A stretch of 63,868 bases of DNA, filler included, from Basidiobolus ranarum (taxonomy: Eukaryota): the NCBI GenBank assembly GCA_040143965.1. It is 27 parts of 27 records of this genome, joined end to end, with 100 filler letters (N's around TTAATTAATTAA, not from the genome) between each part and the next. Parts side by side here need not be neighbours in the genome. Positions count along the whole stretch, not along the records: positions 11,880 to 14,153 come from JASJQH010003542.1; 26 more parts are not named here. One strand, 5' to 3'. This document shows positions 1 through 51,552 of this stretch, piece by piece (within the stretch, counting starts at the first letter, position 1; each line of letters starts with the position of its first letter). The translations under genes and the position numbers were made by a program. A model generated the notes under the pieces. That model ran no database searches. It was given only the letters and a program-made list of their open reading frames with translations, and was not told where the DNA came from.

Positions 1-853
1 GTATATTAACCTGCCAACAAAGGGCTCTTTTCAATGTGCTCACGGGTTTTTGCATTGTTTGAGCACAATTACAGCCACAAAGCCCAATCCATGGACACAG
101 AGTAAGTACCTCTATAATTGGACTAACTTGCTTGTGTGATAGTTGGATGGTATTTTTACGAAAGCTGTAAGACAGACTTCTTGGTGATATAGTTCCAGAT
201 ATGCAGTATTGTTGCTTTAGCCATGGGGTAATCTATTCAAGCAATGACACATCTACTTATTGCAGGACATTTGTTGACTGTGAGTTGGGGATATATTGGC
301 TGAATTCATTATGGAGATTTGCCAAAATCTAAGAGCTTATTCTCATTGTGAAAGGTAACAAGAGTCAGCTTTTGCCAGTGTTGGTGCTATTCAAAATTTC
401 AGATGCTTAGCAATTTTTCCACCATAGGTTTGCTGGTAAAGTATGTTGCTGTTGTTGAGTTATGTCTAATCAGTCCAGTATGTGCATATGTAGAGACTAA
501 ACACAACAAGATTCTTTTATTTTTTGATTCTCATTATGGCTGGAATACAAAGCCTAAAATTACTAAATAATGGCATGCATATTAATTCAAACTCCTACAG
601 CAGTAAACCCGGTAATTTGCCATTCAAAAATTATAATTTGCAAAAATGCCAGAAATTGAAAATACATTCCAAATATGTGGATCAATATTTTAACTTGTAT
701 GAATATTGTTGTAATACAATCAAGAAACCAACATCACACCATCAAAATCCCTGGCAGAATGCAAGCCACTGATATTGTAATGGTTCTCTGATGGTTTTGC
801 AATTTAGAATGGTGGATCTAATCTGGATCAAATTGATTTCATTTTTGTTTGGG
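1..853 (+). mobile_element. CMC/EnSpm (CACTA-type) transposon: decayed 3' part of the transposase region and one terminus
   Basis: Similar to 58185-58520 (same strand) and 38610-39230 (reverse); ends in ...gatttcatttttgtttggg, a variant of the reverse-complemented CCCTAACAAAAAT terminus. Confidence 0.8.
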
Positions 854-920
854 AGACCAAGAACCTCTCTATTCCTCCAAACCTCTTCCAACAGGCTCCC
901 ACATACTTTAACAACTTGCT

Positions 921-1900
921 TGTTGATGTCACTAATCTCATCTCTAAGGCAGTAATGTGATTGCTCTACTTATCTAACAGGCTCCCAACCTAGGTGATTG
1001 CTATGGTATCTCTATTTAGAGTTGCTTACCAATGAGAGCCAATCTACCTTAGCTTACATTCAGTATATGAGATAATGCAAGAATACATCTCAATATATCT
1101 GGATCAAAATTAATATTGCTTGTTGATGTAGTCTCTGAACTATATTTTCACTCTCATATAGTTGCATCAGTACTTTCCAACTATCTTAGTTGTACTGGGC
1201 TGACTATTTATGATAAAAGTACTAATGGAATTTGGAAGTGTTTTAGACAAGGTTTGGATGTTTAATTTGACAATTTAGTTTTATTGACTGGAATTGGTCC
1301 TATTTATAGTTTACTATGAAGTAGGACTGTTGGATGTGCTTAGGTAACAAACATGCCTGTAAAGCCTGGGTGAAAATTGATAGAGATTTACAGAACTTTT
1401 GAGAAAATAGTGAAAAATGGTAAAAATGATCCAATTGCTATTTGTATGAATTAGAGCAATAAACATGTGTTTTTGAATGGCAAAATTGGGTGGCAAACAA
1501 TCAGAATATGAAAAAACTAATTGTTGAATTATAAGTTGCTGTTTACCTAACTTCAACATTCTGACTGAACTATTTATTATGCATTGTTCTTAAACCTGAT
1601 TTTTATCTTAATAATTCAAATTGTGCTTTAGCTAGGTGGTTGGTCAAGAGGTCAGCAATCATTTTTTCAGTTGGGAAATAGACAGGTTCAATTAGGCCAG
1701 TCTCTATTGCTGTTCTAACAAAATGTTGCCTAATAACTATATGTTTTCTTCTATCATGAAATGTAAGATTTTTAGCTAATGAAATGCAACTTTGATTATA
1801 TTGAAATACCATACTAGCTCATTCTTCCATTTACCCTAAGTTTGTAAATAACTTCCTTAATCACATAGATTCTTGTGTAGTAGCAGATGCTTTCATAAAC
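921..1900 (-). mobile_element. Ty1/copia remnant: RNase H C-terminus plus probable 3' LTR (about 921-1558)
   Basis: NQSCISLAKN..FHDRRKHIVIRQHFVR..MIADLLT; the following LTR-like segment is bounded by TGTTG...CAACA on the minus strand. Confidence 0.8.
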
Positions 1901-2377: not shown

Positions 2378-4653
2378 CTTCAGTCTGTGGCTTGCTACAG
2401 ATTACTGCATATGCACAGACATCATTATTGAAAGTGTTGCACCAGTTCCCTGGCTTATTGCTACTTCTGGAAGAACTTCCAGGTCCTGAATCATCCGCTG
2501 ATGTAATTGGGGAAAGAAATTCAGTTGAATAGGGCTCAGAAACAGCTGGAGTTTTGCCAGACACTTCCTGAATAGTGCTGATTGTGTTTTCTGGATCATG
2601 AACTGGGATTTGAGGTGAAAAATATGCTCTTTCATCAACAATCACATCTCTGCACTTGATTAACTTTGGATTATTGGTATCAAAAGTTTGCAGGCCTTAG
2701 ATCCATCATAGTAGCCTAGAAATATGCATTTACTGCTCTTAGATTCTAATTTAGAGCGTTGTTGAGCTGAAATTTGGCAATATTCTATGCAACCAAAGAT
2801 CCTGAAATGATTCACACTTGATTTTGATCCAAATACAGCTTCAAATGGAGTAGAATTTTGTAGCAATCTTGTTGTGCATGTGTTTGTGAAATATACAACA
2901 GTAAAGACAGATTCAGCCCAATGTTGGTAATCTAACTTTTGATAATGTACCATTGCTCTTGTCATCTCCACTATGGTCCTCCCATTGATCAATTACATTT
3001 TTAGAAAAGAAACTAGCTATGTCTTTAGAGCAGTGTTCTCCACCATTATCACTCCATAATGCCCTTTTTTTTGTGCTACGTCTTTCTCTACTACTGCTTT
3101 CTAGTGCTTGAACATAGTCAAGGCTTCAGATTCTGATATGAGAGGAATACCCAATATACCATGTTTTGTCTCCCATAATGGTCATAAAATACCGTTTGCA
3201 ACCTAGTGAGACATTCTTCATGGGGCCACATCAATCAGAATGAATTAGGGCAAAATTCTGAGTGTATTTGATGCCTCCACGGCTTTAAAACAGCTGTCTG
3301 TGATGTTTTCCATATGTGCAGCCTTCACCAAGATCTAATTTGATGATATTTTCAATATCTGAGCCTGAAACAAGCTGATTTTGGATCAGTTGGGTTGATT
3401 TTTGTTTCTCAATGTGGCCAAATTTTCTATGCCACATTTGATGACATTTTGTATTGGTATTGGCCATGTTTGCATGCTCAGAATGCAATTTATTGCTTTC
3501 TAGCTTGTATAAGTTTTGAGTATTGATCTTAGCAGCTAATTTGGTATTATTCTGATCTGTGATAGTATATCCAGCCTTGTTGAACATGATACTTAGACCT
3601 TAGTTGTTAATTGTTTTATGGCAAGTAGATTCTTGGCTATATTTGGTACATAGAGCACATCTTTATATTTTTCAGATGGTGTATCAGAATTTCAGTCTAA
3701 ATTGAGTACCCTTACAAGCTGCATCCAGTGCATAGTCTGTGTCTAAGTAGATTTTGCTTCTTTGGATGGTTTTTAAGCTGGAAAACCAATCTTTCTTGTT
3801 TGACATATGCTGGGAGGCTCCTAAATCAATGAACCACATTTCTGAGGATTCTATAGCTGTTACTGATAGGCTGGACACCAAAAGCTTGTCCCTATCAATG
3901 CTTACTTGATTTGGTTGTTCTGATTATAGCTTTGTGGCAAAAATCCTTTGTCTGCAATCTTTGATTAAATGACCTGGTTACATGCAATACTTGCAAATCC
4001 CAAAGGCCTTTTTCTTCTCTCTAATTTGCATCTTGAACTTCCAAAGGTGAAAGTCTTGAACATCAAAATGAATGTTGTTGAAGTGCTGCTTACTGAGTCC
4101 TATATTATTTTTAAGTTTATCACTGAGGAGAAGAGACTGTTGGAAGGTGGGACTGAATTCAAGAAGGAGAGTGTGATATATATAAATGAACTCTTGGTTG
4201 GAGCAAAGAATTGCGACAGTAAGGCCAAACTTTATGCTACTATTGTAACAAACCTGGGCTGTTTGCCCAGAACTGCTACAAAAAAAGTTGATATTGTTAT
4301 AAATCTTAAGTAGGTAAGAATCATAGAGGGTTGAATAAGCTAGTATTGTAGTCACTAAAACTTGACTGAGGTTTGTTGTGGGATGTATTTGTATATTTAT
4401 ATCCAAACTGATAGATGAGATCAGTAATGACTCATCTGCTAGTTACTAATCTAAATGCTATATCACATTCTAGCTACATCTTAATGGGGTGGCATAGTTG
4501 TGGGCCAAGACATCCTGGGGTAGTACACCAATCAGCTAATACTATTGGAAGTAGATATACAGCAGCATGTTACTTAGTAGTAGGTTTATTCATATTCTGA
4601 TTATTTGGTTCACAATTCTGATATTTGAAAGTATGTGTTTATTGCTCTGATTG
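2378..4653 (-). mobile_element. Decayed Ty1/copia element (LTR, internally deleted gag, protease, integrase)
   Basis: FHLWKFKMQ joined directly to zinc knuckle CKYC..GH...C; protease WFIDLGASQHM; WHRKFGH; integrase TIVEMTRAM..WAESV..TPFEA..FRIFGC; many stops and frameshifts. Confidence 0.9.
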
Positions 4654-7129: not shown

Positions 7130-8456
7130 AGCAAAGTTTAATTCCATCAGAACCGTACTAGCAGTAGCAGCAAAACACAGCTTAAAAATCCATCAAATGG
7201 ATGTTAAAACTGCTTTTTTGAATGGGGACTTGGAAGAGGATATATTCATGGATCAGCCAGATGGTTTTGTGGATCCTGAGCACCCTGAGGACGTGTGTAA
7301 GCTACAGAAATCACTCTATGGACTTAAACAATCACCCAGGGCCTGGTACACTAAGATAGACACATACTTGGAATCACTTGATTTCCAAAAGAGTACGGCG
7401 GATTTTGGGATCTACTTTAAGACAGATAAGGACAGTAAGGTGATACTTGCCTTATATGTAGATGATCTGATTATAGCTACCAATAATGATGAAGCTCTCA
7501 GGAACACCAAAAGAGATCTATCAGTCCAATTCAAGATGACCGATTTAGGCGAACTTACGTATTTTTTAGGTCTGCAGATCCATACAGATATATTGAGCAA
7601 ATCTATCACTCTGAATCAATCTAAATACATCTCAGACATTCTCAGACGTTACAGGATGGAGAATTGCAAGCCAGTAGCAACTCCCATGGATCCAGGTGTG
7701 AAATTAGTCAAAAATCCCATCAAAAATGATGAAAATCGGCCAAATATGGCTCAAAATATGTCATTTGAAAGCCCTGAGTTCCCTTATCAATCTATGGTAG
7801 GTAGTTTGATCTATGCTATGACTGGAACCCGGCCAGATATCTCTTTTGCAGTGGGAGTAGTCAGCCAACATGTGCAAAATCCAGGATCTGAACATTATGC
7901 AGCAGTTAAGCGGATTTTCAGATACTTGAAGGGGACAATTGATCTGGGATTAAGATACACATATTCTTATGCTAATAAGGATCTAATTGGGTTTAGTGAT
8001 GCAGATTGGGGACGTGATATTGAGGACAGAAGATCAATAACTGGATATACCTTTCTCTATAGTGAAGCAGCAATATCTTGGAATAGCAAGAAACAACCAA
8101 CCGTAGCACTTTCAACAACTGAAGCAGAGTACATGGCAGCTTCACACACAACAAAGGAGGCTATGTGGCTAAGGAAACTCTTTAAAGACTTGGGCATTTC
8201 TCAAAGTTCACCCACCATAATTTTTAAGGATAATCAAAGTTGCATTTCTTTAGCTAAAAATCCGAAATTTCATGCTAGGAGTAAGCACATTGACATTCAA
8301 CATCACTTTGTTAGGGAAGCTATTGAGAATAAGCACGTCCAACTGGAGTACTGTCCAACTGAGGACATGATTGCTGACATCCTTACCAAACCATTACCAA
8401 AACCAAAATTTGAAGAATTAAGATTTAAGTTAGGATTAAGATATATGAATATTTAG
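7130..8456 (+). mobile_element. Ty1/copia family A reverse transcriptase and RNase H, uninterrupted reading frame (partial element)
   Basis: HQMDVKTAFLNG, LQKSLYGLKQSPRAW, LYVDD, FSDADW, VALSTTEAEY, HIDIQHHFVRE, ADILTKPL; polypurine tract TTGAGTGGGAG immediately before the LTR. Confidence 0.97.
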
Positions 8457-11779: not shown

Positions 11780-11879
11780 NNNNNNNNNNNNNNNNNNNNN
11801 NNNNNNNNNNNNNNNNNNNNNNNTTAATTAATTAANNNNNNNNNNNNNNNNNNNNNNNNNNNNNNNNNNNNNNNNNNNN

Positions 11880-12989
11880 CCAGTTCACCGTTATGGCAAG
11901 TAGGGCACAGACTTGAAGTTTTAAGCTCATCAGGGAGGTATAGCTGGAAGTCTTTTTTTGCTAACATTCTTCTCATTCCGACGCCTCTATTGAGCGAATG
12001 ATACTTTACATTTCCAATCGACCAGTTACCAAGTATTAATATAGTATCATTCCCAAACTTCTCTCAAAGATTCTTGGCAAGCCGTTAGTCTGATTGTAGT
12101 TGGTTAATGAAACTTGGGAGCTTCATTTTTCTAAAAGGTAACAAACTGCTGGTACGCCGGTCTCCTCCTGCAGAGCGATCTTCATTTGAGTAATGACCTA
12201 AACTTAATTGACTTACTCTTTCTTTGTTGTTTCATCACCTTTTATGTGAGGTCAGTAACGGTTCCCCGAACTACTTCTTTATCCAATAGTAGATTGAGTC
12301 TTTTGCAAATGATAATCTGTTGAATATGAGCCAAAAAGACTATTGATCATATCCAAATCGTTTGAGAAGAGATATTCTTTAGGTATATCTTCAATATTTC
12401 TTGATGAAATAGCCAGCTTGACCTTCTTTATATGCTCTATTATTGTCTTTATGGCTGTCCTAATCTCCTTCACACTTCCCTCACTCTTCTTCATTTTGCT
12501 TTCCAGCACCTCAAACCTTCGTTCTTCAAGAGCAAGTCAAGAATCATTCTCTTTGTTTCCAAATTGAAGGTTGAACCCATTCCAATATGCAGTGACAATT
12601 TTTGCTACTTCATACGAGGCTATCTGATGAGAATACTTCATGTTACCTGGTTTGTAAGGGCAGCACTGAAAGTACTTATACTGAAGCTTGAGTATTAGAT
12701 CTTTGTAGGCTCTTGGTTCTATCAAAACTTTCTGTTAGCTTTGCTTGTAGTTATTGAGGAGTGACAAAAAGGCTTCTTTAAAAGAGCCAACATTAATGAA
12801 AGCCTCCAAAAGAAACTCAGGATCAGCTTCCAGTTACTGAGAGCACATATACTTCAAAAAGGAAGACATACATGACATAAGGGTATGAACACTAGCTACT
12901 GGTGACATGAGTTGTGGGGCATATTATGACTTCTACCCAATACCAGTGATTGCGTTTTTGACAGCTATAATCTTTAGAGATGGTTCCAT
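11880..12989 (-). pseudogene. Fanzor1 (eukaryotic TnpB/IS605 OrfB-like RNA-guided nuclease) pseudogene, internally deleted, 3' end beyond the contig edge
   Basis: Manual translation from ATG 12989 across stops and frameshifts: MEPSLKIIAVKNAI..SFLKY..LEADPEFLLEAFIN..EAFLSLL..HQIASYEVAKIVTAYWNGFNLQFGNK/RMILDLLL..KVKLAIS..YSTDYHLQK/DSIYY, then LPFRKMK..KFGNDTILILGNWS..RGVGMRRMLAKKDFQLYLPDELKTSSLCPTCHNGEL; order and motifs match fungal Fanzor1 proteins as I recall them. Confidence 0.82.
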
Positions 12990-13315
12990 AAAGAGAATAA
13001 GAGAAAAAGCAAATTGATCTCTTGTTTAGTTGATGGATAGAAAGCTTTGTTAATTATATACTCTCAAAAAAACCTGATGAGTTACAACAATGAATTGCAC
13101 AATTCGCTCAGTGTTTTTGTTTACTTATCTCATAGTTGTGTTATTATGTTTACTTAGGTAGTGGCTTGGTTCAGCTGGAGTTGGTGCATTTGACAGATTC
13201 ATTTGTGACAAGGTGCAATATTGATGGCTTAGGCACAAGAAAGAATGATAACATGATAGTGTAGTGGGAGTATAATTAATAATCATAAATGATGGCTAAG
13301 TGCCCACTGCTCCAT

Positions 13316-13362
13316 ATTTTCGCATTCCTCTTTATTTTCACATTCCTCTTTATTTTCGCATC
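13316..13362. repeat. 18-bp tandem repeat, about 2.6 copies (ATTTTCRCATTCCTCTTT)
   Basis: Directly visible. Confidence 0.85.
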
Positions 13363-13964
13363 ATCACTGGCTGGACAGTAATATGACAACATATCAATCG
13401 GTGTTATTAACAGTCAACGTTTTCTAGATGAAACTTCCCCAATTCTTTTTATTTCACAGATGCCATCCGATGTCAGCCAGGGAAAGAAGTCAGTAGTAGA
13501 AACATTTCAGAGTTATATTGACGTAGTACTATTGCTCTTTACACGTGAAATCTTAAGATGCGGTAATGCATCATTTTTTACTTGCTAGACATAGTTCCAT
13601 TCCTCTCCGTGTCCATAATTGAGAATCGGTCAAGTTTCATCATGCAATGGATATACTTTGAACTCAAATCCGGAGTATTCACAAATTGACTACTGTTACA
13701 CTGCAGGTTTGAAAGATCTATGATTTACACGCGTTGAAGTGGATCTTTGGATAACTGAACACATGTTGTTGACTAGTATTGCCATACTTTCAACCATAAT
13801 TGGCCAAAAGTGCGTCCATCGACTTTTTAATAATGAATCATCTAAATTATTCTATAATGGCAGACGTCAAACCAAGCTTCATCATTCCTTAGTGAACAGT
13901 ATACACAATTAGGTCTCAATTCCTGGCAAATAGTCTATTCATCAAATACGACAACTATTTAGCT

Positions 13965-14106
13965 TTTATAGAATTCAATACACATTTATAGAATTCAATA
14001 TACATTTATAGAATTCGATACACATTTATAGAATTCAATACGCATTTATAGAATTCAATATACATTTATAGAATTCAATACACATTTATATAATTCACTA
14101 CACATT
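13965..14106. repeat. 20-bp minisatellite, 7 copies (TTTATAGAATTCAATACACA)
   Basis: Head-to-tail units with 0-2 substitutions and no spacers. Confidence 0.97.
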
Positions 14107-14253
14107 GGTACCTTTATGGTGTTCTATATGCCGATCACATCTTATTATTCTGTNNNNNNNNNNNNNNNNNNNNNNNNNNNNNNNNNNNNNNNNNNNNTTA
14201 ATTAATTAANNNNNNNNNNNNNNNNNNNNNNNNNNNNNNNNNNNNNNNNNNNN

Positions 14254-15693
14254 AGTTTTCCACATTTGTAATATTTCACAGTGCTCCTTTCTGGTTGGCT
14301 ATTTTGAGAATAAAATGCTTGTGTAGTTTTTGTTTCATCTGCAAGCTGACTTTTGTCTTTCCTTATAGATTCTTCTTGACATAGAAAAGAGTTCAGATAA
14401 TGCTGAGTAAGCTTATCCCCAATTGCTTCCAAAGTGTGTACAAGGGCTGAATATGATTCAGGGAGACCATTGATTATGGTGAGAATCATATCCATTTCAG
14501 GTACTTCATAATTCACTGATTCCAGTTGTTAGGCATGTTTCTTAACACTATTTACATATGTCTTAATATCTGATTCCTCAGACATACAAGAGTTCAAGAA
14601 TTATCTTTATAGCATTATCAAGTGAACAAGCCCTTTTTGCTCATGATGGTCCACTACAATTTCCCATGCATTCTTAGCAGAGTCAGCATCTCTGACTAGC
14701 ATAAGGGTTGTGATCCCAGTCTTAAAAATATATTCCTAAATGCCAATCTGTCTTTTTCTTTGAAGGCTCCCCTGGCTTCTTTATGTGTTGGCTTCTTTTT
14801 TTAGTGTCAGAATCTGTACTTTTTCTTCAGAAGTTTCTTCTTCTTCCTCAGGTTGAACTTCTTCCTAGACATGTTTCCCTTCCAGCACAAGTTGCATCTT
14901 GAATTTGCATTCATGGAAATCTTCCATATTGAATGTTGGAATATTTGTAATCTCCTTTTGGGAAGAAGACTGTAATCCACTTGCTCCTACCATGTTGGAG
15001 GATCTTGACATAATGGGGGTAGACTTTGGGTATTAGAAGCTACTTATGATAGTGTGTTTGAGTTACTTTATTCTTAAGAGTATATGGTGACTTATAAAGT
15101 AGAAAAGTAAGTCAATTGTTTGAGATATTCAAGAGTTTGTGTAATAAAATATAATAGATAAGTGGGGGTAATAAGACATACTTGTTATATAGATATTGAG
15201 ATATTCCTATTTTGAATATAAGGGCTATAGATACAATGCTTTCTGTTTCTGATATATATATCATAACTAAAGTTAACTTTGATGTTGAATATATTGGAAA
15301 AATATGGGCTATTTGGATGAACTTTAGAAAAGTGGAGTTGTGATTAGCTTTTGTGAGATAATTATTTATTGTCCAGAAGTAAAGCATTTATATATTTTGT
15401 TGGAAATACAGAAAACTAGCAATGGGATTGTGTTCAGAACATCTGTGGGAGTAAAATGAGCTATCTTTGGGACAATTTGGATGAGTTTGGAATTTTCAAT
15501 ATGGAATTGCTAATTCTCACATTATTCAAATATATGTATAATATATGTTCCAATTTTCAGTTAAGTGATATTTGACTAAGTAATGTTAACTAACTTATAT
15601 GTGATATATGAAATAGTTGGGTGTATAAAGATAGAGATAATAAATAAGACAAAGACAATAAACATCAACAGAATAAAGATTAATTATCCAACA
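14254..15693 (-). mobile_element. Copia family B 5' LTR (14993-15693), PBS-like TGGTAGGAGC and decayed gag
   Basis: LTR TGTTG...CAACA on the minus strand; gag FHECKFKMQLVL..DSAKNAWEIV..ILTIINGLPESYSALV. Confidence 0.85.
15292..15670 (-). repeat. Copia family A solo LTR with 5-bp TSD GAATA, nested inside the family B LTR
   Basis: GAATA at 15287-15291 and 15671-15675; LTR matches 8468-8843. Confidence 0.92.
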
Positions 15694-16626: not shown

Positions 16627-18424
16627 GCCTTTCCAACGGTATATTTGCTTAGTGAGAAACCATCCAGAGCCAATGCAAATGCATGATCATACATGTTCTC
16701 AAAGAAACCTTGACTTTTCAGATTCTGGTAGTGATATGCATCAAGTATATTGGTAATACCATCAGCTTTATGGTGAGTGCTTTGGTATTGGATCAATGAT
16801 CTATATTTGGGTAAATTCATCAAAACTTTAAGACAGGGAATCAATGGTATGTAAGACAAATATAAGCACTATTTACCTGCTTCAGTGATTGCAAATTGTG
16901 TGCAAACAGTACATAACTTCAGGTTTTTCAGATCACCAGTCAAAGCCAATCAACCATTTGGACATGAAGGTAGTTTACTGAAAGACTATAAGTCATACAA
17001 TCGACAAGTTTTTTCCACCTGTACCAGGTCTGTTGCAAGTAACAGTTGCCAATCAACTGTGGTAAAAGTGTAAGAAAACCAATAAACACCTAGTTGCTAA
17101 GGTTGAATTGAACTTTCCACTCCTGAATTTTCAAAGCTGCTTCCTTTACAGTAAGCATTATGAGTGGACTAATGTTTACCAATAACTAAGAGTACATAAC
17201 AAAACCATTGTCTTCTTCTTCAACTTCTGATATACTACCATCAGAACATGAATAACCAAGGTCAACATCTACCTGCAAGTTCTCAAAGTTGTCTGGACTT
17301 ACTGGTTCAACCAAAGTTGCATTTTGACCTACATCATTCTGGTCATATAACTGTGTTAACTTCATGGTATCTTGACTTTTGGCTGTGCTACCAAAACTTT
17401 GAGGCAAACTACAGTCAGAGGACTCAATAGGCAAACCTAAAGTCAATTTAGTGCACTTATTTTTGTTATTATACACCAGGCTTTGTGCAGCTGGTGGCTT
17501 TGTACAGTGACCATGCTTGTAATTTTTTTTTCTATGAAGCCTCTGGCTTTCATAGCACAAGAATTTGTGACAATAATAGCAGGGCTTCTTTAAACATTTT
17601 GTTGTGGCATGAGAAGGATATTGTGAAATAAAGAACACCTCCTGTGTATGAATGGTATTCTAGGTATAGCCTATCAATACCTTCTGCTAATTCTTAGATG
17701 GTGTCACAGATGAGCCATCAGGGGATTTACAAAATATTTGAGGTAATGGATGGCAATTTTGGTTAATTTTATGCTATTTCCAAGCAATTTCATTACCCCA
17801 AGTTTACCATCTGAAAGTTTCATTACTATTCAAAAAGCATTGAAAAATAAATCAAAAGCAGCTTCCAAGCCAAAGCGTGCTGGCACAAAAGGAAAAAAAC
17901 CTGCCAGAACAGAGGACTTGATTGATTAGCAGTCTAGCAATCCACTATCTGCTTTGGAAGGCATTAACATGCTGGAAACTAACTTAAGTAAAGATGAAGC
18001 ATTAATCAATTTACCAGAGGTGTTCCTTTCTAGCAATTGTGCAAGTGAAGAGATTGTAGTCCTCCAATTACATAGTAAATCAATAGTTGAGCAAAGTTCA
18101 ACCAAAACACCATCAAGACCATCAACTTCCAAATTGGCTACTTTGCCCACTATTGAACAACCCTCCATAGAAAGTTTGGATAAAATTATCACAACAGGGG
18201 AATTGCAGGCAGAACACCCCCTAACAAAAATAAAATCGTAATGATTTGTATGCAATCATCAGTAAAAACAATGAAGTTGGTATACAGGCCATGAAAAGCA
18301 ATAACATCACAATATTGCAATAAATGCAGCATTTAGAAGCAACTAGTCAACAGTTAGAGTGTCACTCATCGATGATACAAGACCTTCAGAATGCAGTACT
18401 TGAACTACAGCAACATGCTGCTAT
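16627..18424. mobile_element. CMC transposon central region: 5' half of the transposase (-, about 16627-17640) and divergently oriented ORF2 5' part (+, about 17820-18424)
   Basis: YIPLIPCLKVL..DAYHYQNL..ALALDGF on the minus strand; the plus-strand low-complexity frame matches 38390-38610 in reverse. Confidence 0.8.
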
Positions 18425-18999: not shown

Positions 19000-19624
19000 C
19001 CCTGTTCTAGAAGCCTATGCCATGACTGAGTCTGCCCATCAAATGACATCTAACCCCCTCCCACCAGCTTCTCGTAAACCAGGCTCAGTGGGTATTGGTC
19101 AAGGAGTTCAAGTGGCCATTCTTGATGATCAAGGTAATCGTGTAGAATTAGGGGAAGTGTGTATTAAGGGAGAGAATGTTACCAAGGGATACTTGAACAA
19201 TGCTGCCGCTAATGAATCCTCTTTCACTAAAGATGGCTGGTTCCGTACCGGTGATCAAGGTAAAATCGATAAGGAAGGATATCTTTTCCTTACTGGGCGT
19301 ATTAAGGAGTTGATCAATCGTGGTGGTGAGAAGATTTCTCCGTTGGAAGTTGATAGTACTCTCCTACATCATCCCAAGGTGTCTGAGGTCGTATGCTTTG
19401 CTGTACCAGATGAGATGTATGGTCAGGAAGTTCACGCAGCAGTTATCCCTAAGAAAGGTGAAACAGTCAGTGAAGAGGAACTTCAAACTTTCTGCAAGCA
19501 GAGTCTCGCTAGCTTTAAAATCCCCAAGAAGATATACATAACTGATTTCTTCCCCAAAACTGCCACCGGTAAAATCCAGAGAAGAATCGTTTCTGAATAC
19601 TTCCTTAAGAAGGCCAAATTGTAA
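19000..19624 (+). CDS. PCS60: Peroxisomal acyl-CoA/oxalate-CoA ligase (Pcs60/AAE3-like), C-terminal part
   Basis: EAYAMTESAHQMTSNPLPP, GWFRTGDQG, GRIKELINRGGEKISPLEVD, PKTATGKIQRR; C-terminal PTS1 signal AKL. Confidence 0.9.
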
Positions 19625-20259: not shown

Positions 20260-21183
20260 TCAACTATCAAATACAACGCTCAAGCCAAGTTTATGTGTAT
20301 CTTTTGTCAGACGAGTGGTATCAAATATTCCCGCTATTGATACCTTGCCACCGCGACGAATAGCTTGAGTATAACTAACCCCAAGTTTGCCGGTATTACT
20401 GATCTTTGCTTTTACAAATGTACTCTTGTCTAGGAAATATTTGGTACCGACCTCGAGGGTAACAGGTGCTTGAGGGGATTTTGAACTCCAAACTGCCTTA
20501 GCACCGGCCTCAACATCAGTATTGACACGATGATAGTAAGAGACAGAGAAGATTGAGAGGGCATTGATAGTCTGCAGGGTAATAGCGTGGTCGGAAGCGA
20601 CATATCCAAGAGTAGCATTGGATTTTGTAACTTTAGCACCAAGAGTATCATACCCTATTTCAGCACCAACTAAAAACCCATCTTGACCAACAACAACATC
20701 AGCATGGAACGTAGGACCCTTCAAAAGATCAACATTGACTCGAGTAAATAATTTGGGTTGCTTGTATTCCAAAGAAACTTTGGCACTTTTCGAACCAACT
20801 GTGGGTAGAAAAGAACCAAAGACATCCACTTTTAACCCCTTGATTTTATCTTTGATTTCGACTTGAGAGGTAATGAGATTACTGGTAGTCCAGCTCTCAG
20901 TATATGTTACACCATTCTTGACATCATTATATTTACTCTTTAACTCAGCATTTATGGCACCAGTCTTATTATCTTGAGCACCAGTCACGCTAAAATTCTA
21001 TACAAAATAAAGTTTCTAGTTGAATAAATTTGACAACCAACAGATAGACGAAAATAAGTGAACCAAATGAGCACGGCTACGTTTGTATTGAAACCGAGTA
21101 CGAAAAAGATAACTTACAACACCGCTGGCAGTGGAGGTTTTAACCTCGAGTTTGACAGTGCCATTGATAAGAAACTGTGGCAT
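20260..21183 (-). CDS. POR1: Mitochondrial outer-membrane porin VDAC; exons 21183-21118 and 20997-20260; usual N-terminal helix not visible
   Basis: GTVKLEVKTSTASGV/NFSVTGAQD..TESWTTSN..SYYHRVN..LEVGTKY..VKAKISNTGKLG..HKLGLS; GTAAGT...TAG intron 20998-21117 keeps the frame. Confidence 0.9.
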
Positions 21184-33361: not shown

Positions 33362-33985
33362 CTAAGCTCCAACGCTAATTATTGGACGCTTATCGAGTAA
33401 CTCGTGGCCATCACCTTGACCGATATTCATCTCCGGAATGGTAGGATATCCGGGAAGATTGGCAACCATTAGCTTTGGACCAGTAACTTTCCCGCCAGGG
33501 GTTCCACCATTAATAGTAATATCGACACAATTCATGTAGTATTCTCGATTACCTTCAGCATTAACCCAAGTCCATGCTAGAGTGGCCCGCTTACTGGGAG
33601 GGGCGGTTGCTGGAATTGGTACATCAAAAGTAAGTCCATTCTTGAAGCAGTTACGGACAACAGTTTTCAAAACGACAAATGTCTGATCGTTGTCGTAGGA
33701 GAGAGCAAATTGACAATGGCCACCATCATGGGTGTTTCCGGGGGCGAATTGAACCTTAACAGTATCACCAGCATTGTAAGTGTACTCAACCTTCCCTGCT
33801 TTATAGCCCTTGCAAGGGAATGTGCCCAATGGACCGTTCATATCATAATCAATATCCCCAATAGACTGATAGTACTTGCTGAATGTGGATTTGCGAGGGG
33901 CAGGCGATTGAATCTCCATGTGGCCAGACACGAAGCTCAAGATGCAAAGAGAAGCAACAGTTAATAAATGGGATAGACCTCTCAT
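33362..33985 (-). CDS. AA11-type lytic polysaccharide monooxygenase (probably chitin-active), catalytic domain only
   Basis: 21-aa signal peptide then His as mature residue 1 (HMEIQSPAPR); FPCKGY, THDGGHCQFALSYD, WTWVNAEGNREYYMNCVDI, GPKLMVANLPGYP. Confidence 0.9.
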   Translation of the reverse strand: MRGLSHLLTVASLCILSFVSGHMEIQSPAPRKSTFSKYYQSIGDIDYDMNGPLGTFPCKGYKAGKVEYTYNAGDTVKVQFAPGNTHDGGHCQFALSYDNDQTFVVLKTVVRNCFKNGLTFDVPIPATAPPSKRATLAWTWVNAEGNREYYMNCVDITINGGTPGGKVTGPKLMVANLPGYPTIPEMNIGQGDGHELLDKRPIISVGA

Positions 33986-35594
33986 GATAAAATCGAGTTA
34001 CTAAAGAATTAGTTGATATTCAGGCTTTGAAAAGGGTCTCTCTTTATATCCTTCAAGCGCTACATGTGGGTTGATTTGAACGAAGTTCATTGCCTTGTAT
34101 AGCATTTATTGTCCTGGTGCCAGATGATTCGTGTTACTTTATGTACATTTAATAAGTCAAGAAGCAGTGATAACAGGTTACAATGCAACCACTAGCTCAT
34201 GAGTAATAGCTAGCATTCTGTACTGCCTATGAGGGATTAATGCTTTGTACATTGCCATCGCTATCCTAATGTAACCGGAGTGTTAGTAATGTTTCAATGA
34301 CTTAGTTCCCATACACCAAAAGCATATAACACGAAACAGCCTTTGAAAAATAATCAGAATGAACGGAATTTTCAGCGTAAATGAATTAGACTCCAAAATA
34401 TATATTTCTACCTAAACAAACATACTAGCGGAGTGAGCAACCTGTCGACGAACACAGTTTTAGCTGAAAACTAACAACAGATTCAAAGAAAATTTCCGCA
34501 ACAACAAACTACTTTGAATATTTCATGATAGAAAGAACAGTAGGAGTTGCTGAATGACCGAAGCCGTATCCCACGATCCGACTGCTCTTACTTCATTTTG
34601 AGCACTAGCGTAATGATCTATTCCAAAAATAGGTTAATAGTCTCGCGTGTCACATTACTGCTCGGATAATTTAATAAGTGGTAGCAATCACTATAACGCT
34701 GGTAGTTGTGAATGTGGTGTTTCACTTTTACCAGATATCATATTTCTGATTAATATTCCTGTACAATCGAAGTGTGAACACATACTAGAACAAAGTAAAA
34801 GTGAATTATGTACCAGAATAGGCCTTCCGTACAAGAGTAGGCACCCAAATAAGCGCCCAGGAGAAGATCTAATGATTGGCATGGCAAATATGCGAATCAA
34901 AGATAGAGCAAGCTACGATATAGGTATCTGTGATCATCTAGTAACCTTCAACACTTAAAGTTTTAGATAGTCTCAAATTGTGTGTCTGGATCTTTTCAAG
35001 ATAACTATATGATAGAACTCAGTCGAGAGGCTTACAGTAGACACTGTTCTCACTGGGGATTTCTAGACTCAATATGAGAGTCAAGTAATTCGCAAGAATA
35101 CTGCAAGTATTTCCAGCGCAGTATGAGAGTCAAATAATTTGTTGAGTAAACATTGAAGATACTACTATATAAACAATGTACTTTAGGCTTCTAACTACTT
35201 TTCTAAAATCCTTATGTTAATATCTAGATGGTGCATGTAGATACTCTTAAAGCCTATCATTCAATGACCAAACTTATTCATGTGTCTATATCTGTTGCAT
35301 TGAGACGTGCGTAAACAACTGAACTAGAATATTAACATACCTTGAAGTACATCATGTATCCTCGCCAAGGTTAACAATGTAAAAAGAGAAATCGGTGATT
35401 TGAAAGGAAGCCATGTATCCTGATTGATCCACATCGATTCAGTTTAACATTTGATTTTCAATTGTCAGATCGCCCCACCCTATTTCGCAAATGANNNNNN
35501 NNNNNNNNNNNNNNNNNNNNNNNNNNNNNNNNNNNNNNTTAATTAATTAANNNNNNNNNNNNNNNNNNNNNNNNNNNNNNNNNNNNNNNNNNNN

Positions 35595-37226
35595 TTCTCT
35601 ATTGGCATTTACTTAAAATATTTTTACCAACTCAGAAGTTCTCAAATATATAGATTTTTCAAACTTGTGCTAGAAGCCCCAAACTTTGCACACATGTTCC
35701 TGGGACCTTCCTTAACACATTTTACATGTTTGTTTGTTCACATCTGGACAAAACTATAAATGTCAACTTTCTACTCAAAAAATCAATAAGTGAAAACCAC
35801 CAATTCCTCTAATTCTCCAAACCACTTCCAATAGGCTCCCAAATACTTTAACAGGCTATGAGCCCCAAGCTTGCACTCTCTGTAATGTCTACTTCTCAAA
35901 TCTATGGAACTTTTCCCTCCTCCAAAAAATTGGATGGAACCAATTATCAAGTTTGGAAAATTAAAATGAAAATGCTGCTGCAAGAGAAAAGACTCTGGGA
36001 CACTGTTGTAGAAGAAAAAAACAATGCAAAACTATCTGAAACCAAAGTTTAACTCCAGGTTGAAATAGAACAAAGTGCCTTTAACATAATTTGTCTTAAT
36101 GTTAAAGATAAATTGCTAATTCAATGTTCAAGAGCTAAAATTGCTAAGAAGGTATGGTAAGCCTTGGAAGACACCTATCAAACAAGTTCTGCTGCCAACA
36201 AGATGTTTCTAAGAAGGCAATTCTTTAACTTGAAGATGAATTCAGGAGAAGACATTAAGTCACTAATTAATAGAGTCACTATATTAGGGGATGAAAAGCA
36301 TTGGAGTATCTACTACTGATCAAGATATCATAGCTTCTGTCCTGAACAGCCTGCCACACAAGTTTCAGAGCCTTGTAATGGGTCTTGAATTAAGAACCAA
36401 AAATTTGACCTTTAATTATGTATTTGGCAGACTTCTGGATGAAGATTTATGCAAATTGGGATCCAACCAAAAGAATGAAGAAAATGCTTTAATAGGCTAT
36501 AGGAAACCTTCCTATAAAGGTCAAAAGCACTTTAAGAAGAAAAGTAACATATTCTGTGATTACTGTAAAAGAACTGGCCATTTAAGCCAAGATTGCTTTA
36601 AAAGATTTGCAAAAGAAGAAAAATGTACTGAATCTGGAAATGTGGTTGCAATAGAAGATCACTTGTTCATATCTGCTTTATCTATGACTACCAACAAGGA
36701 TTCTCAGACATGGTATATTGATTCTGGAGCTTCCCAGCATTTCACAAATGAAAACCATTGGTTTGTGGAATATGAAGAAATCCCAATTAAAAAGGTTTTC
36801 ATAGGGGATGACTGCACATTGGATGCTATTGGAATGGGAACAATTCAAGTCAATTTAACTGGAGCTTTTGAAGAGAGAGTATATACTTTTAAGGATGTAC
36901 TACATGTTCCAGATATTGCCAAGAATTTAATATCATTATGCCAGGCCTCCTCAGAAGGGCTAAAATTCAATTTTGATAAGTCAGGATGCACCATCACTGA
37001 TCAAAATGGGAATTATTTAGCTTCAGGAGAAAAGGATCAAAGCTTATACAAGCTTACACATAATCTAAGAGGTCTATTTGTAATTATAAGTTATTCCAAT
37101 CAAGAAGCTATTCAACTATTGCATAAGAGATTTGGCCATATTGGATTTGGTTATTTGAGCAAAATGAACACAAATTGCCTAATTTCTGGAATTCAAATTA
37201 ACTCCCCAACCAAAATGGAAATTTGT
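35595..37226 (+). mobile_element. Copia family C: LTR end (to about 35853), PBS GGCTATGAGCCC, gag, zinc knuckle, protease
   Basis: KLDGTNYQVWKIKMKMLL, VLNSLP, CDYCKRTGHLSQDC, WYIDSGASQH, HKRFGH; a few stops and frameshifts. Confidence 0.92.
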
Positions 37227-37863
37227 TGTTGAAGTTTATTGTCTTTATGATATTTGTTATCTCTATCTTTATACACCTAACTAATTCATATATCACATAT
37301 AAGTTAGTTAACATTACTTAGTTAAATATCACTTAGCTGAAAATTGAACATATATTATATATATATGGGAATAATGTGAGAATTAGCAATTCCATATTGG
37401 AAATTTCAAACTTGTCCAGATTTCCCCAAAAATGGCTGATTTTACTCCCACAGATGTTCTGAACACAACCCTAGTGTTAGTTTTCATTATTTCCATCAAA
37501 ATGTATAAGTGCTTTATTTCTGAACAATAAACCATTATCTCACAAAGCTATTCACAACTCCACTTTTCTAAAGTTCCTCAAACAGCCCATATTTTCCCAA
37601 TAGGTTATGAGCCCCATGTTCTAACCTTTACAGCATGACAAAAAGCACTACTACCACTTTTATTAACTCCTGTGTTTAAAAGCTTGATGGAGAAAATTAC
37701 AATTTCTGGAAGTTCAAGATGAATATCATGCTGGAAGACAGGGAGCTCTGGTATGTAGTCTCTGGAGATGAAAAGGAACCTTCTGACCCTTCTTTATTGG
37801 AAGCTTACAAGAAAAGAGACAAGACGGCCTTTAATGTCATTTGTCAAAGTTTGAAGGATTCAC
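37227..37863 (+). mobile_element. Copia family A 5' LTR (37227-37602), PBS GGTTATGAGCCC and gag start, inserted into family C
   Basis: 376-bp LTR as at 8468; KLDGENYNFWKFKMNIMLEDRELW. Confidence 0.92.
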
Positions 37864-47430: not shown

Positions 47431-49695
47431 CTATATATCTGAGAACTTCTATGTGGGTAAAAATATTCTAAGTAAATTCCAATTGTGAATAATGGGTAAT
47501 GTCTTAGTGAACTATAAGATAACCAAATACTGAGCTATATAAGACTATAAAGGTGTTTAGGCAAAGCTAATTTCAACAGTTACAAGAGTAATATGACCTG
47601 ATTGATGTAGGTAGTAATGCAACTTTAGTTAAACCAGTAAGCCCAGACAACTTTAAGGACATGCTGCTTGATGTTGACCTAGGTTATTCCAGTACTGATG
47701 GTAGTATATCAGAAGTTGAAGAAGAAGATGATGCTTTTGATACAGACTCTTTGTTACTGTCAAGCATTAGTCCACTCATACAACTTACAGTTAAGAAAGC
47801 AACTTTGATTATTGAGGAGTGGAGACTTCAATCCAATCTTAACAACCAGATGTTTATTGGTTTTCTTACACTTTTACAAGAGTTAATTGGGAACTGTTGC
47901 TTGCCACAGCCCTGGTACATGTGGAAAACACTTGTCAATCATATGCTGTTTAATCCTTCAATAATTATACTACCTTCATGTCCAAATGGTTGTTTGGCTT
48001 TCACTGGTGATCTGACAAACCTGAAGTCATGTACTATTTGCACACAATTGGCAATCACTATATCAGGGCAATATTGTTCATCTTTGGCTTAAATAACACT
48101 GATTCGCCATATTAATGTTTTGATGAAATCACCCAAATATAGATCATTGATCCAATACCAAAGTATGCCCCATAAAGCTGATAGTATTACCAATAGACAT
48201 GTTGGATATCACTACCAGTATCTGAAAAGTCAAGGTTTTGTTGAGAACACATATGATCATTGATTTGCATTGGCTCTGGATGGTTTCTGACTGAACAAAT
48301 ATACTGTTGGAAAGGCCTGCTAGCCAATAATTTTATTTACCTTTAATATTCCTCCTTTGGAATGGTATAAGAGTCATAATATTTTGCTACTATCCATCAT
48401 ATCTGGACCTAAATCACCAATGCTTATGGATAGCTTCTTGGAGCCTTTGATTGCAGAATTTGAATGGTTATTTAATAGGGTTCAGATGGTTGAATAATTA
48501 TATTATAGCTAATATAATTGTATGTCTTGAGGACATTCCTGCCATCAGTAAGCTTTGAGGTTTTTGTGGGCCACAATGTACCGTCTTGCTGTAGATTATG
48601 TCAAATCAATGGAGTCTACTTTATCATGCATACACATTACTAGTATCCAAATACAACACTAAACTCCATGATTTTACCATCAAGAGCCTGGTCAGATTTC
48701 AACATGTTCACAGATATCAATTCACTAAATAGTCAGTCTAGCTTCAAACTTAGTTTTAGCTATAAGTCTAAGACTATATTGGTAAAGGAGATCAGCTGGA
48801 GCAAGAGCATCCCATTAGGCACCCTAACAAAAATAAAATCAATTTGATCCAGGTCAGATCCTTGCAACAAAACAGCAAAACCATCAGAGAATCATCTTAA
48901 TATTGATGGCTTGCATTCTGCCAGGTGCATGATCATACATGTTCTCAAAGAAACCTTGACTTTTCAGATTCTGGTAGTGATATTATTCAACTTTATTTGT
49001 AATACCATCCGCTTTATGGTGAGTACATCTGTATTGGATCAATGATTTATATTTGTGTGATTTCATCAAAACTTTAAGACAGGGAATCAACACTCTATAA
49101 GCCAAATTTGAACAATACCTATCTGATTAAGTGATTGCTAATTGTATGAAAACAGTACATGACTTCAGGTGTCCTAGATCACCAGTGAAAGCCAAACAAC
49201 CATTTGGACATCAAGGTAGTTTAATTACAAACAGATTATGAGTCATACAATTGACAAGTGTTTTCCACTTGTACCTGGTCAGTGGCAAGCAACAGTTGCC
49301 AATCAACTGTGGTAAAGGGTAAGAAAACAAATAAACACCTGGTTGCTAAGATTGGATTGAACTCTCCACTCCTCAATAATCAATGCTGCTTCCTTTACTC
49401 CAAGTGTTATGAGTGGACTAATGTTTGCTGATAACAAAGAGTCCATAACAAAACCATTGTTTTCTTCTTCAACTTGTGATATACTACCATTGGTACTGGA
49501 ATAACCAAGGTCAACACCTAGCAGCAATTCCTCAAAGTTGTCCGGACTTACTGGTTTGACCAAAGTTGCATCTTGACCTACATCATTCTGGTTATATAAC
49601 TGTGGTAACTCCACGGTATCTTGACTTTTGACAGTGTTACCAAAACTTTGAGACAAACTACAGGCAGTGGACTCAGTTGGCAAAACTAAAGTTGA
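47431..49695. mobile_element. Copia C LTR scrap (-, 47431-47577), CMC transposase (+, to 48821), inserted CMC terminus (48822-48925) and a further transposase fragment (-)
   Basis: CPNGCLAFTG..CTICT, ALALDGF, SGPKSP..DSFLEPLIAEF; CCCTAACAAAAATAAAATC at 48822. Confidence 0.87.
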
Positions 49696-49795
49696 NNNNN
49701 NNNNNNNNNNNNNNNNNNNNNNNNNNNNNNNNNNNNNNNTTAATTAATTAANNNNNNNNNNNNNNNNNNNNNNNNNNNNNNNNNNNNNNNNNNNN

Positions 49796-50367: not shown

Positions 50368-51237
50368 CTAATGTTGATTTCCAATCTTAGAACGCCATGT
50401 ACGGGCTCGTTCGAAGCCATTGATTCCCATGTGATAGTCAGTAAATGTACGTTGAATATCGCTGGCGTGATTCATAACAAACGGCCCGTATTGAACAATT
50501 GGTTCCTTGATTGGTTCACCAGCTACAAGTACAAAATGGACCGCCTTCTCCTTAGTCTCGATGCTAACTGTACCTCCTTCTTCGCTGAGCGTCAATGTGT
50601 AGTGTGCTCTCCCTACTGTATTCTTTGAACCAAAATAGCCCTCCCCTTCCAGGATATACAAGAAGCCTTGATAACTCTCCGGAATGACTTGTTCAAATTT
50701 AGAATTTTTCTCAACTTTAAAGTCTAGATACATGGTAGGTGTCTTGGTGACTACAGGACTACTGACTCCAAAGGAATCACCAGCAATCACTTTAATCGTT
50801 GCATTGACCCCTGGTGGTGATATTCTTGGAATATCCTTGTCTAGGAGCTCCTGGTAACGTGGCTCACACATTTTATCAACAGCGCTCAGGTTAACCCATA
50901 ACTGAAGACCATGACACTTTGTTTGCGGCATCTCCGCATGCACAATACCACGGCCGGCAGTCATCCATTGAAGATCTCCGGGTCCAATTTGACCTTGATG
51001 ACCAGCAAAATCTTCATGAGAAACTATTCCGTCGAGCATATACGTAACAGTCTCGAAGCCACGATGTGGGTGATCCGGAAATCCAGCAGGAGGCTCGACC
51101 ATAAATTCGTCCAGCATTAGGAAAGGATCGAAATTTTCAAGTGCACTAGTTCCAATGCTTCTTCTAACTCGTGCCCCGTCCCCTTCAGATTGGGTAATAG
51201 CTTCAACCTTTCTCGTAACATATCTTTCAAGTGTCAT
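50368..51237 (-). CDS. Pirin (bicupin, quercetinase-like), 289 aa, intronless
   Basis: EGDGARVRRSIG, DPFLMLDEF, GFPDHPHRGFETVTYM, WMTAGRGIVHAEMP, GLQLWVNL, QYGPFVMN. Confidence 0.96.
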   Translation of the reverse strand: MTLERYVTRKVEAITQSEGDGARVRRSIGTSALENFDPFLMLDEFMVEPPAGFPDHPHRGFETVTYMLDGIVSHEDFAGHQGQIGPGDLQWMTAGRGIVHAEMPQTKCHGLQLWVNLSAVDKMCEPRYQELLDKDIPRISPPGVNATIKVIAGDSFGVSSPVVTKTPTMYLDFKVEKNSKFEQVIPESYQGFLYILEGEGYFGSKNTVGRAHYTLTLSEEGGTVSIETKEKAVHFVLVAGEPIKEPIVQYGPFVMNHASDIQRTFTDYHMGINGFERARTWRSKIGNQH

Positions 51238-51552
51238 AGTGTATTAATGGATGTATAGAAATTGACAAATTTAATTAACGAAACTCATTTAATCCAATAC
51301 CTTTTATATATTTCCAACCACGGAAAAATCACCCCAATTAAGGCCATTTATCAGTCTCTAATTTTAGACATATTACTCCGCGACCAGATCCTCGGATAAA
51401 CAGACGTTACAAGCGCTCATAAGCTCCAGATAACTCCAACTATCTTATTAATCACTGCTGTATTTCCCTAACATTCTCTCCACCATTACCAATATTGGTT
51501 ATTATTCTGAATATATGATATTGAAGATGAAATATGGTGAGCAAGAACATGA

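Follow-up and report, generated by a model that had tools for sequence, protein, structure and literature searches.

Fanzor1 (Fz1) proteins are transposon-borne, RNA-guided nucleases of eukaryotes and have been described as 'highly spread in fungi' (Saito et al. 2023, PMC10432273). Bao & Jurka (2013, PMC3627910) listed four Fanzor1 families in Rhizopus oryzae, ten in Mucor circinelloides and three in Phycomyces, part of which have MuDR-like ends. In Fz1 elements, the omegaRNA sequence lies at the 3' end (Xu et al. 2024, PMC11423790; Saito et al. 2023, PMC10432273). For PpFz1, the enzyme of the mucoralean fungus Parasitella parasitica, assays gave a 5'-ATN target-adjacent motif (TAM) and a 75-nt omegaRNA, and a FRI domain situated in RuvC was found to bind cyclophilin (Xu et al. 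2024, PMC11423790). At the protein level, Fanzors follow an ExxxxxxCxxC spacing rule, in which the RuvC-II glutamate is relocated and named 'Ealt' (Yoon et al. 2023, PMC10711439).

Here, we report the analysis of a 63,868-nucleotide stretch of DNA (the window) from an assembly of Basidiobolus ranarum (GCA_040143965.1), made up of 27 contigs of 2261-2277 bp each (about 2.27 kb), which are ordered by size and joined by artificial linkers. On the contig located at 11880-14153 (JASJQH010003542.1), a decayed Fanzor1 gene almost certainly occupies the minus strand between 12989 and 11881, the span 13008-11881 representing the 5' two-thirds of a dead transposon gene. This relic is homologous to Fanzor1, is interrupted by lesions, is truncated by the end of its contig and belongs to the subfamily found in Rhizopus arrhizus/delemar.

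Identity and anatomy of the Fanzor1 relic

When compared with the proteins of the PDB, residues 2-58 of the 61-amino-acid C-terminal piece of the relic matched Parasitella parasitica Fanzor1 (9cf0_P) with an E value of 2.6e-16. The same piece matched SpuFz1 of Spizellomyces punctatus (8gkh_P) with an E value of 2.6e-5, and RNF4 (E 9.8) was the only other match. Among public proteins, 6 of the 18 candidates were found at E <= 1, all of them 75-79% identical to the piece; Rhizopus arrhizus/delemar accounted for five of them and Basidiobolus ranarum for one. The longest of the six, R. arrhizus protein P0006 (577 residues), is the closest full relative, and it matched PpFz1 with E 1.6e-140 and SpuFz1 with E 3e-50. 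These values bear out the Fanzor1 identity proposed in an earlier note on this DNA. The relatives of P0006 at E <= 1e-5 numbered 224 among 8000 candidates scored, and the organism-named ones among the 123 listed all belonged to Mucorales, Coemansia or Syncephalis, the rest being jgi, ena and lgn records.

When fungal relatives were compared with the whole window by tblastn, the similarity was far beyond chance. Residues 1-232 of a second family protein, P0013, aligned with 12989-12300 (E 5e-55, 45% identity). Three segments of P0006 were also recovered: residues 1-116 in the N-terminal block (E 4e-35, 61% identity), residues 183-215 at 12286-12188 (E 0.003) and residues 349-463 at 12225-11881 (E 4e-40). 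The protein alignments were colinear from the first methionine (MEPSLKIIAVK versus MEPLLKITTVK) and, since P0013 aligns from Met1, the ATG at 12989-12987 is the true start. In total, 123 of the 123 family proteins tested matched the contig of the relic at E <= 1e-3. In the other 26 contigs of the window, tblastn with the fungal relatives gave no match better than E 0.99, and the missing 3' part was not found there.

The peptides from which the gene was first recognized are all present at the positions claimed for them. FLKY, LEADPEF.LEAFIN, EAFLSL and QIASYEVAKIVTAYWNGFNLQFGNK are read in frame -3 from the ATG, RMILDLLL lies in a shifted frame, GNWS is encoded at 12030-12019 and DELKTSSLCPTC at 11931-11896. 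The distance between SIYY and LPFRK, put at about 140 bp, is 144 bp, between the end of KDSIYY at 12286 and the start of LPFRK at 12141.

For comparison at the DNA level, a nearly intact element of the Rhizopus type was used, L001 (4815 bp), which was the single locus returned when metagenome contigs of the Joint Genome Institute (JGI) were scanned with P0013. In the part compared by eye, its Fanzor frame differs from P0006 at two residues. L001 carries a +1 T frameshift of its own at 2424, after codon 68; the same frameshift explains why the public P0006 was annotated from an internal methionine. Furthermore, an intron-like gap of about 44 nt was observed in L001 at 4042-4085, between ..RHGLLR and CKNQQC. 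Two other frames of L001 may be mentioned as separate observations. Upstream of the Fanzor element, positions 1-906 (+) contain a tyrosine-recombinase-like frame (Phage_integrase, E 6e-4, below the cut-off), which may be Crypton-like, and the frame at 1484-1729 (-), judged by eye, is similar to the zinc-binding tail of non-LTR (long terminal repeat) reverse transcriptases.

Alignment of the relic with L001 by blastn gave three colinear blocks, all on the minus strand of the window. The first, 13008-12287, corresponds to L001 2200-2930 and shows 150 differences over the 702 coding sites compared (12989-12287, with L001 2220-2930), a DNA identity of 78.6%. It includes the N-terminal block (12287-12989), which opens with the ATG, closes with ..KDSIYY and shows homology to P0013 1-232 and to P0006 1-116. 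It is followed by a middle remnant of 89 bp (12198-12286; LDKEVVRGTVTDLT, a stop, then KVMK..IKFRS), which is homologous to P0006 183-215 and is aligned with L001 3115-3203 at 75% identity without gaps or 82.6% with gaps. The third block, 12192-11882, corresponds to L001 3646-3956 without any gap, with 56 differences in 311 positions (82.0% identity). It covers the C-terminal block of the relic (11881-12192; ..YSNEDR..LPFRKMK..FGNDTILILGNWS..RGVGMRRML..PDELKTSSLCPTCHNGEL), which encodes the RuvC-II region together with the zinc finger's first half. Overall, 221 differences were counted at 1099 aligned sites (79.9% identity), consisting of 149 transitions and 72 transversions.

The alignment begins at 13008 (L001 2200), 20 nt before both ATG codons, so that the stretch 12990-13008 (-) is a 5' leader of the element and the last one similar to L001. 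A shared TCAATTT word carries a weaker similarity to about 13020 and, by eye, any likeness fades beyond about 32 nt upstream. The 5' end of the element would thus lie near 13008-13020, about 20-30 nt upstream of the ATG.

Prokaryotic TnpB proteins (IS200/IS605, IS607) were considered and rejected as the source of the gene. No OrfB_Zn_ribbon match was obtained, and the organism-named relatives, taken from the 6 protein matches and the 123 rows listed, are all fungal. In addition, the glutamate occupies the Ealt position; in TnpB, the canonical RuvC-II glutamate would be expected some 50 residues ahead of the zinc finger.

Several observations nevertheless weigh against the identification of the locus as a dead Fanzor1 transposon gene. 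When five pieces of the relic were compared with Pfam, no family reached the cut-off (best E 0.018), and none was found in the intact relatives P0006, P0013 and P0046 either; a PF26935 tag attached to the family by the protein search is either absent from the Pfam copy used or unmatched by it. Family membership is thus based on resemblance to proteins of solved structure and not on a curated profile. Moreover, some of the small insertions or deletions could stem from a short-read assembly of low quality, the 3' part may exist just past the break, and intact paralogues may exist elsewhere. Finally, as to the type of transposon (terminal inverted repeats and target-site duplications), an inverted-repeat scan of L001 revealed only short, chance-like, AT-rich pairs of 11-25 nt, none of which links the 5' boundary to a plausible 3' end, and no convincing terminal inverted repeat was obtained.

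Catalytic motifs and decay of the gene

The fingerprint of the Fanzors, E-x6-CxxC, is retained in PDELKTSSLCPTC. The codon of the alternative RuvC-II glutamate (E of PDELKTSS) is found at 11926-11928 (-), six residues before the first CxxC of the zinc finger in the translation. This first pair of cysteines (CPTC) is encoded at 11896-11907 (-), and the contig ends five codons later. The adjoining positions 11780-11879, which have no strand, are a linker composed of N44, TTAATTAATTAA and N44, where the gene was severed by the assembly; the edge at 11880 is therefore real. The same kind of linker was observed at 2278-2377. As the relic stops at the equivalent of P0006 residue 463 and the RD aspartate (WNRD) of P0006 is at 516, the second pair of cysteines, RuvC-III and an omegaRNA, if any, would be situated past the end of the contig, where the earlier note had already placed RuvC-III. 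The ancestral gene would run past 11880 into ..ETFKKVQNPRPY.. and then to its 3' end.

Two internal deletions relative to L001, with exact boundaries, removed 626 bp of conserved coding sequence from the remaining part. One of 184 bp (L001 2931-3114) left the junction 12287|12286. The other, of 442 bp (L001 3204-3645), was replaced by five unaligned bases at 12197-12193 (-), between the blastn block that ends at 12198 and the one that restarts at 12192. The latter deletion took out CVLIDPGRRD and, with it, the RuvC-I aspartate of the DPG motif (P0006 residue 272, within the missing residues ~216-348). Owing to the loss of DPG, the relic is seen as a descendant of a family member and not as a functional member itself. 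The earlier note had described the loss of a middle segment containing the RuvC-I aspartate. The aspartate is indeed gone, but two deletions separated by the 89-bp remnant are responsible, and not a single one.

In addition, small deletions relative to L001 were detected at about 12551 (-2), 12528 (-3), 12520 (-1) and 12311 (-1), of which the 2-nt and the two 1-nt ones break the frame. Seven nonsense codons were also present at homologous codon positions of the alignment, all of them on the minus strand. Four are in the N-terminal block: TAG at 12935-12933 in place of TGG in L001 (Trp of GIGWK), TAA at 12926-12924 in place of CAA (Gln), TAA at 12836-12834 in place of GAA (Glu) and TAA at 12737-12735 in place of AAG (Lys). 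The middle remnant contains a TAA at 12244-12242 (TCA, Ser, in L001), and the C-terminal block contains a TAA at 12087-12085 (AAA, Lys) and a TGA at 12066-12064 (AGA, Arg). The seven stops thus replace six kinds of residues (W, Q, E, K twice, S and R). The differences from L001 amount to 69/370, 62/365 and 90/364 at the first, second and third codon positions, respectively, which is only a mild excess at the third. As divergence is nearly even over the codon positions, most of it would have accumulated without selection on the protein, and the copy appears to be a neutrally decaying relic.

One could object that an intact, working gene is concealed here by introns, by a variant genetic code or by sequencing errors, which would mimic stops and shifts of frame. 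Introns do occur in fungal Fanzor1 genes, L001 itself shows the unaligned gap of about 44 nt, and the assembly is fragmented. Nevertheless, we consider this explanation highly improbable. The seven stops are inside well-aligned L001 codons and outside introns, and a variant code was ruled out, because no single reassignment covers six kinds of residues at seven stops; the stops are therefore mutations, which neither a variant code nor introns explain. Furthermore, this explanation does not account for the disappearance of 626 bp of conserved coding sequence, DPG motif included, nor for a divergence that is nearly equal across codon positions. The locus contains no open reading frame of the kind expected for a functional gene, given its seven stops, its frame-breaking small deletions and the 184- and 442-bp deletions, and the copy had rightly been called dead. 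One catalytic residue and two-thirds of a reading frame are gone from it and, as assembled here, it is also without its 3' third. To judge from its sequence, it would have no conceivable action as a nuclease or as a guide locus.

A function can be proposed for its ancestor by homology with the assayed members of the family. Based on the length of L001 and of P0013/P0021, the ancestral protein would have had some 690 residues and belonged to the Rhizopus arrhizus/delemar-type subfamily. As is the case for every Fz1, it would bind an omegaRNA produced by transcription of the element's 3' end and would cut double-stranded DNA next to a TAM. Its split RuvC site would consist of the DPG aspartate, the relocated glutamate before the zinc finger and the RD aspartate. 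We thus infer for it an omegaRNA-guided, TAM-dependent, transposon-borne endonuclease activity. This ability would then have been lost through the seven nonsense mutations, the small frame-breaking deletions, the 184-bp deletion and the 442-bp deletion removing RuvC-I.

Origin of the copy found in the Basidiobolus assembly

Basidiobolus is a gut-associated zoopagomycete. The position of the relic with respect to the Mucorales copies was established by phylogenetic analysis. The input consisted of the family proteins of at least 480 residues among the 123, minus P0042, P0048, P0049 and P0123 and with the addition of P0002, P0004 and P0012. The relic was entered as a read-through translation with an X at each stop and join, and only the columns filled in the relic (374) were used. 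Rows less than 14% filled and all but 5 Coemansia rows were dropped, which left 77 rows. In the resulting tree, the relic, the B. ranarum protein P0002 and eight R. arrhizus/delemar rows formed a clade with a support of 99 in the Shimodaira-Hasegawa-like approximate likelihood ratio test (SH-aLRT). R. microsporus was the sister group (91), followed by Helicostylum and Gilbertella, and the clade was also obtained with 43 rows. In agreement with this topology, the relic is 64.8% identical to R. arrhizus P0006 (261 columns), 51-53% identical to the R. microsporus copies and 46-49% identical to those of Gilbertella. The relic and P0002 are thus nested in a Mucorales subfamily next to Rhizopus, which suggests a horizontal transposon transfer, or else a contaminant contig. 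Transfer would add an origin to the identification given above and leave the identity of the gene unchanged.

On the former explanation, a Fanzor1 transposon of the Rhizopus arrhizus/delemar lineage (Mucorales) entered Basidiobolus horizontally, from that lineage or from a shared vector, and died there, a course of events to which we give an even chance. The approximately unbiased (AU) test on 43 rows rejected a topology in which the 26 Mucorales/unnamed rows of the subfamily are kept together without the relic and P0002 (p-AU 0.0003), although this group of 26 rows was picked after the tree had been seen. Nesting inside the genus Rhizopus itself is not significant, as the 12 Rhizopus rows can be held together without the relic and P0002 at p-AU 0.11; this narrower claim was dropped and only nesting in the Mucorales subfamily is retained. 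It must be added that the searches were 'quick' IQ-TREE runs on about 373-374 columns, that the relic and P0002 are on long branches, and that deep paralogy exists in transposon families, Mucorales rows being mixed with Zoopagomycota rows elsewhere in the tree. At third codon positions, the relic differs from the Rhizopus-type L001 at 24.7% of sites only. Host genes compared across phyla would be expected to be saturated at these positions, so that this low value favours transfer; the pirin host gene of the window, described below, reaches only 57-60% protein identity to the Mucorales pirins listed. Transfer of Fz among eukaryotes is already held likely (Saito et al. 2023, PMC10432273); this statement and the discussion of mycoparasitism in Mucorales (Xu et al. 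2024, PMC11423790) are earlier hints of a general kind only. In this reading, the element became extinct in Basidiobolus and left only relics, this copy and P0002, which we likewise regard as having an even chance of being true.

The contig could also be contaminant DNA from a Rhizopus-like fungus of the Mucorales, in which case the relic would be an old dead copy in its native lineage. In favour of this explanation, the nearest relatives are all from R. arrhizus/delemar, the DNA identity to the Rhizopus-type element is about 80%, and broken copies of the family are numerous in Rhizopus genomes, many of the listed matches being fragments of 317-420 residues. The contig contains no host gene and no sequence shared with or linking it to the other 26 contigs, so that its assignment to Basidiobolus rests on the common assembly and on P0002, a point that also weakens the case for transfer. 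Its GC content (35.7%) fits Basidiobolus and Mucorales hosts alike and is uninformative. Contamination seems unlikely to us, however, in view of P0002, which was annotated separately on a 16-kb B. ranarum contig and takes the same position in the tree, outside the Rhizopus crown. Over 77 columns, four states are found in both copies and in none of the eight Rhizopus rows of the crown, and the N of NRGVG and the L of FQLYL, otherwise unseen, are common to both. Furthermore, the relic itself is placed outside the crown of the eight R. arrhizus/delemar rows with an SH-aLRT support of 89. As for the assembly, a single conserved host gene of the window was tested, namely a pirin (bicupin) whose frame at 50368-51243 (-) looks complete. 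Its identity to four proteins of B. meristosporus is 88, 88, 84 and 81%, against 64% for the best of the other matches listed (Modicella), and hence the assembly is most likely that of a Basidiobolus. Between the two explanations, transfer into Basidiobolus is the one that we prefer.

Neighbouring sequences and comparison with known Fanzor1 systems

Upstream of the element, the contig of the relic consists of about 1.1 kb of AT-rich non-coding DNA, and an Rfam scan of the contig gave no match at E <= 1. Two repeats were noted in this flank, namely a 20-bp tandem repeat, TTTATAGAATTCAATACACA, at 13965-14106 (7.1 copies, 91% matches) and an 18-bp repeat at 13315-13361 (2.6 copies). As the contigs were joined artificially, genes located on different contigs are not genomic neighbours.

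Several of the other contigs carry transposon sequences. Pieces of Copia-type LTR retrotransposons were found at 7131-8456 (+), 36288-37232 (+) and 14202-14528 (-), with Pfam matches to RVT_2 (E 4e-58), Pol_BBD, gag_pre-integrs and Retrotran_gag_2; the contig that follows that of the relic begins with a gag-like frame bearing a zinc knuckle. A pol fragment of the Ty3/gypsy type at 54524-56547 (-), split by stops into three frames, matched RT_RNaseH, Integrase_H2C2, a Tf2-1-like SH3 domain and a chromodomain, as in a chromovirus-like element. Related open frames were present on four contigs, at 17186-17659 (-), 47592-48092 (+), 49303-49743 (-) and 56885-57317 (+), and have in common the strings VSPDNFE.L..DVDLGYS..DGSISEVEEE and EEWR.QSNL.NQ.FIGFLTL. 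No Pfam family was found in the two of these frames that were scanned (2/2), and they seem to represent a family of repeat or transposon proteins of this genome that is as yet uncharacterised. Fragments of host genes were also identified: a eukaryotic porin/VDAC at 20260-20997 (-; E 9e-57), an AMP-binding enzyme, of which the C-terminal part is present, at 19001-19624 (+) and a secreted protein with a BIM1-like/AA9-like copper-binding domain at 33362-33997 (-; weak, E 2e-4).

The relic is a dead, internally deleted Fanzor1 pseudogene, truncated by the assembly, of a known fungal family. The copy being dead and the family known, it is of little import for mechanism or for the discovery of tools. 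Its value is for annotation, since it marks a Fanzor1-derived repeat in an assembly that has no annotation, and Basidiobolus joins the hosts in which Fz1 remnants are found. Within the library searched, no paper pairs 'Basidiobolus' and 'Fanzor' and no title on the subject was seen, although the supplementary host tables of Fanzor surveys may already list this genus. If the transfer is true, the relic provides a modest, testable instance of Fanzor movement between distantly related fungi, of different phyla, and a concrete and datable case of eukaryote-to-eukaryote transfer of an RNA-guided nuclease element, followed by its extinction in Basidiobolus.

Among known systems, the closest is the Rhizopus arrhizus/delemar Fanzor1-like family (P0006 'G6F57_014079', P0005 and L001), which is colinear with the relic from Met1 to the contig end, at 60.6-64.8% protein identity and about 80% DNA identity. 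Both have the short junction from ..YYLNEDR.. to ..LPFRKMK, without a FRI insertion, and the E-x6-CxxC motif. Unlike the Rhizopus copies, the relic has stops, frameshifts and two deletions, has lost DPG, misses its 3' third at the contig end and is apparently part of a Basidiobolus assembly and not of a Rhizopus one. This family is probably one of the four Fanzor1 families (ROr) listed for Rhizopus oryzae in PMC3627910.

PpFz1 (PDB 9cf0-9cf3) is a homologous Fz1 whose C-terminal 57 residues align with the relic at the E value of 2.6e-16 given above and with which the GNWS, RxMLxK and DExxTSxCPxC blocks are shared. Overall identity is only about 37%, and PpFz1, in contrast to the inactive relic, has a longer N-terminus and a FRI insertion of about 100 residues. 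The FRI equivalent, residues 576-682 of P0046, has no counterpart in P0006 or in the relic. In the latter, LPFRKMK follows YSNEDR within 15 codons, which assigns the relic to the shorter, FRI-less subfamily. SpuFz1 (PDB 8gkh; PMC10432273) has the same arrangement of RuvC-II and zinc finger as the relic (E 2.6e-5 for the 61-residue piece) but belongs to a distant chytrid subfamily; as a nuclease it is intact and active, and its omegaRNA has been defined.

The last relative to be compared is P0002 (181 residues), the B. ranarum hypothetical protein K7432_007251, which is 79% identical to the relic over 61 residues. It covers the C-terminal third alone and, like the relic, is broken. P0002 has Q for the catalytic glutamate (DQF for DEF) and F for the second cysteine (CPTF for CPTC), whereas the relic keeps the glutamate and both cysteines, and P0002 also shows a 26-residue gap over RLWNRD (RuvC-III). 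As this is the sole other Basidiobolus-labelled relative seen, the suggestion in the earlier note of intact copies with their own omegaRNA and TAM found no support. The family as a whole has been catalogued since 2013, assayed and solved, whereas the present copy is new, and the only less ordinary point about it is its apparent presence in Basidiobolus, nested within the Mucorales copies.

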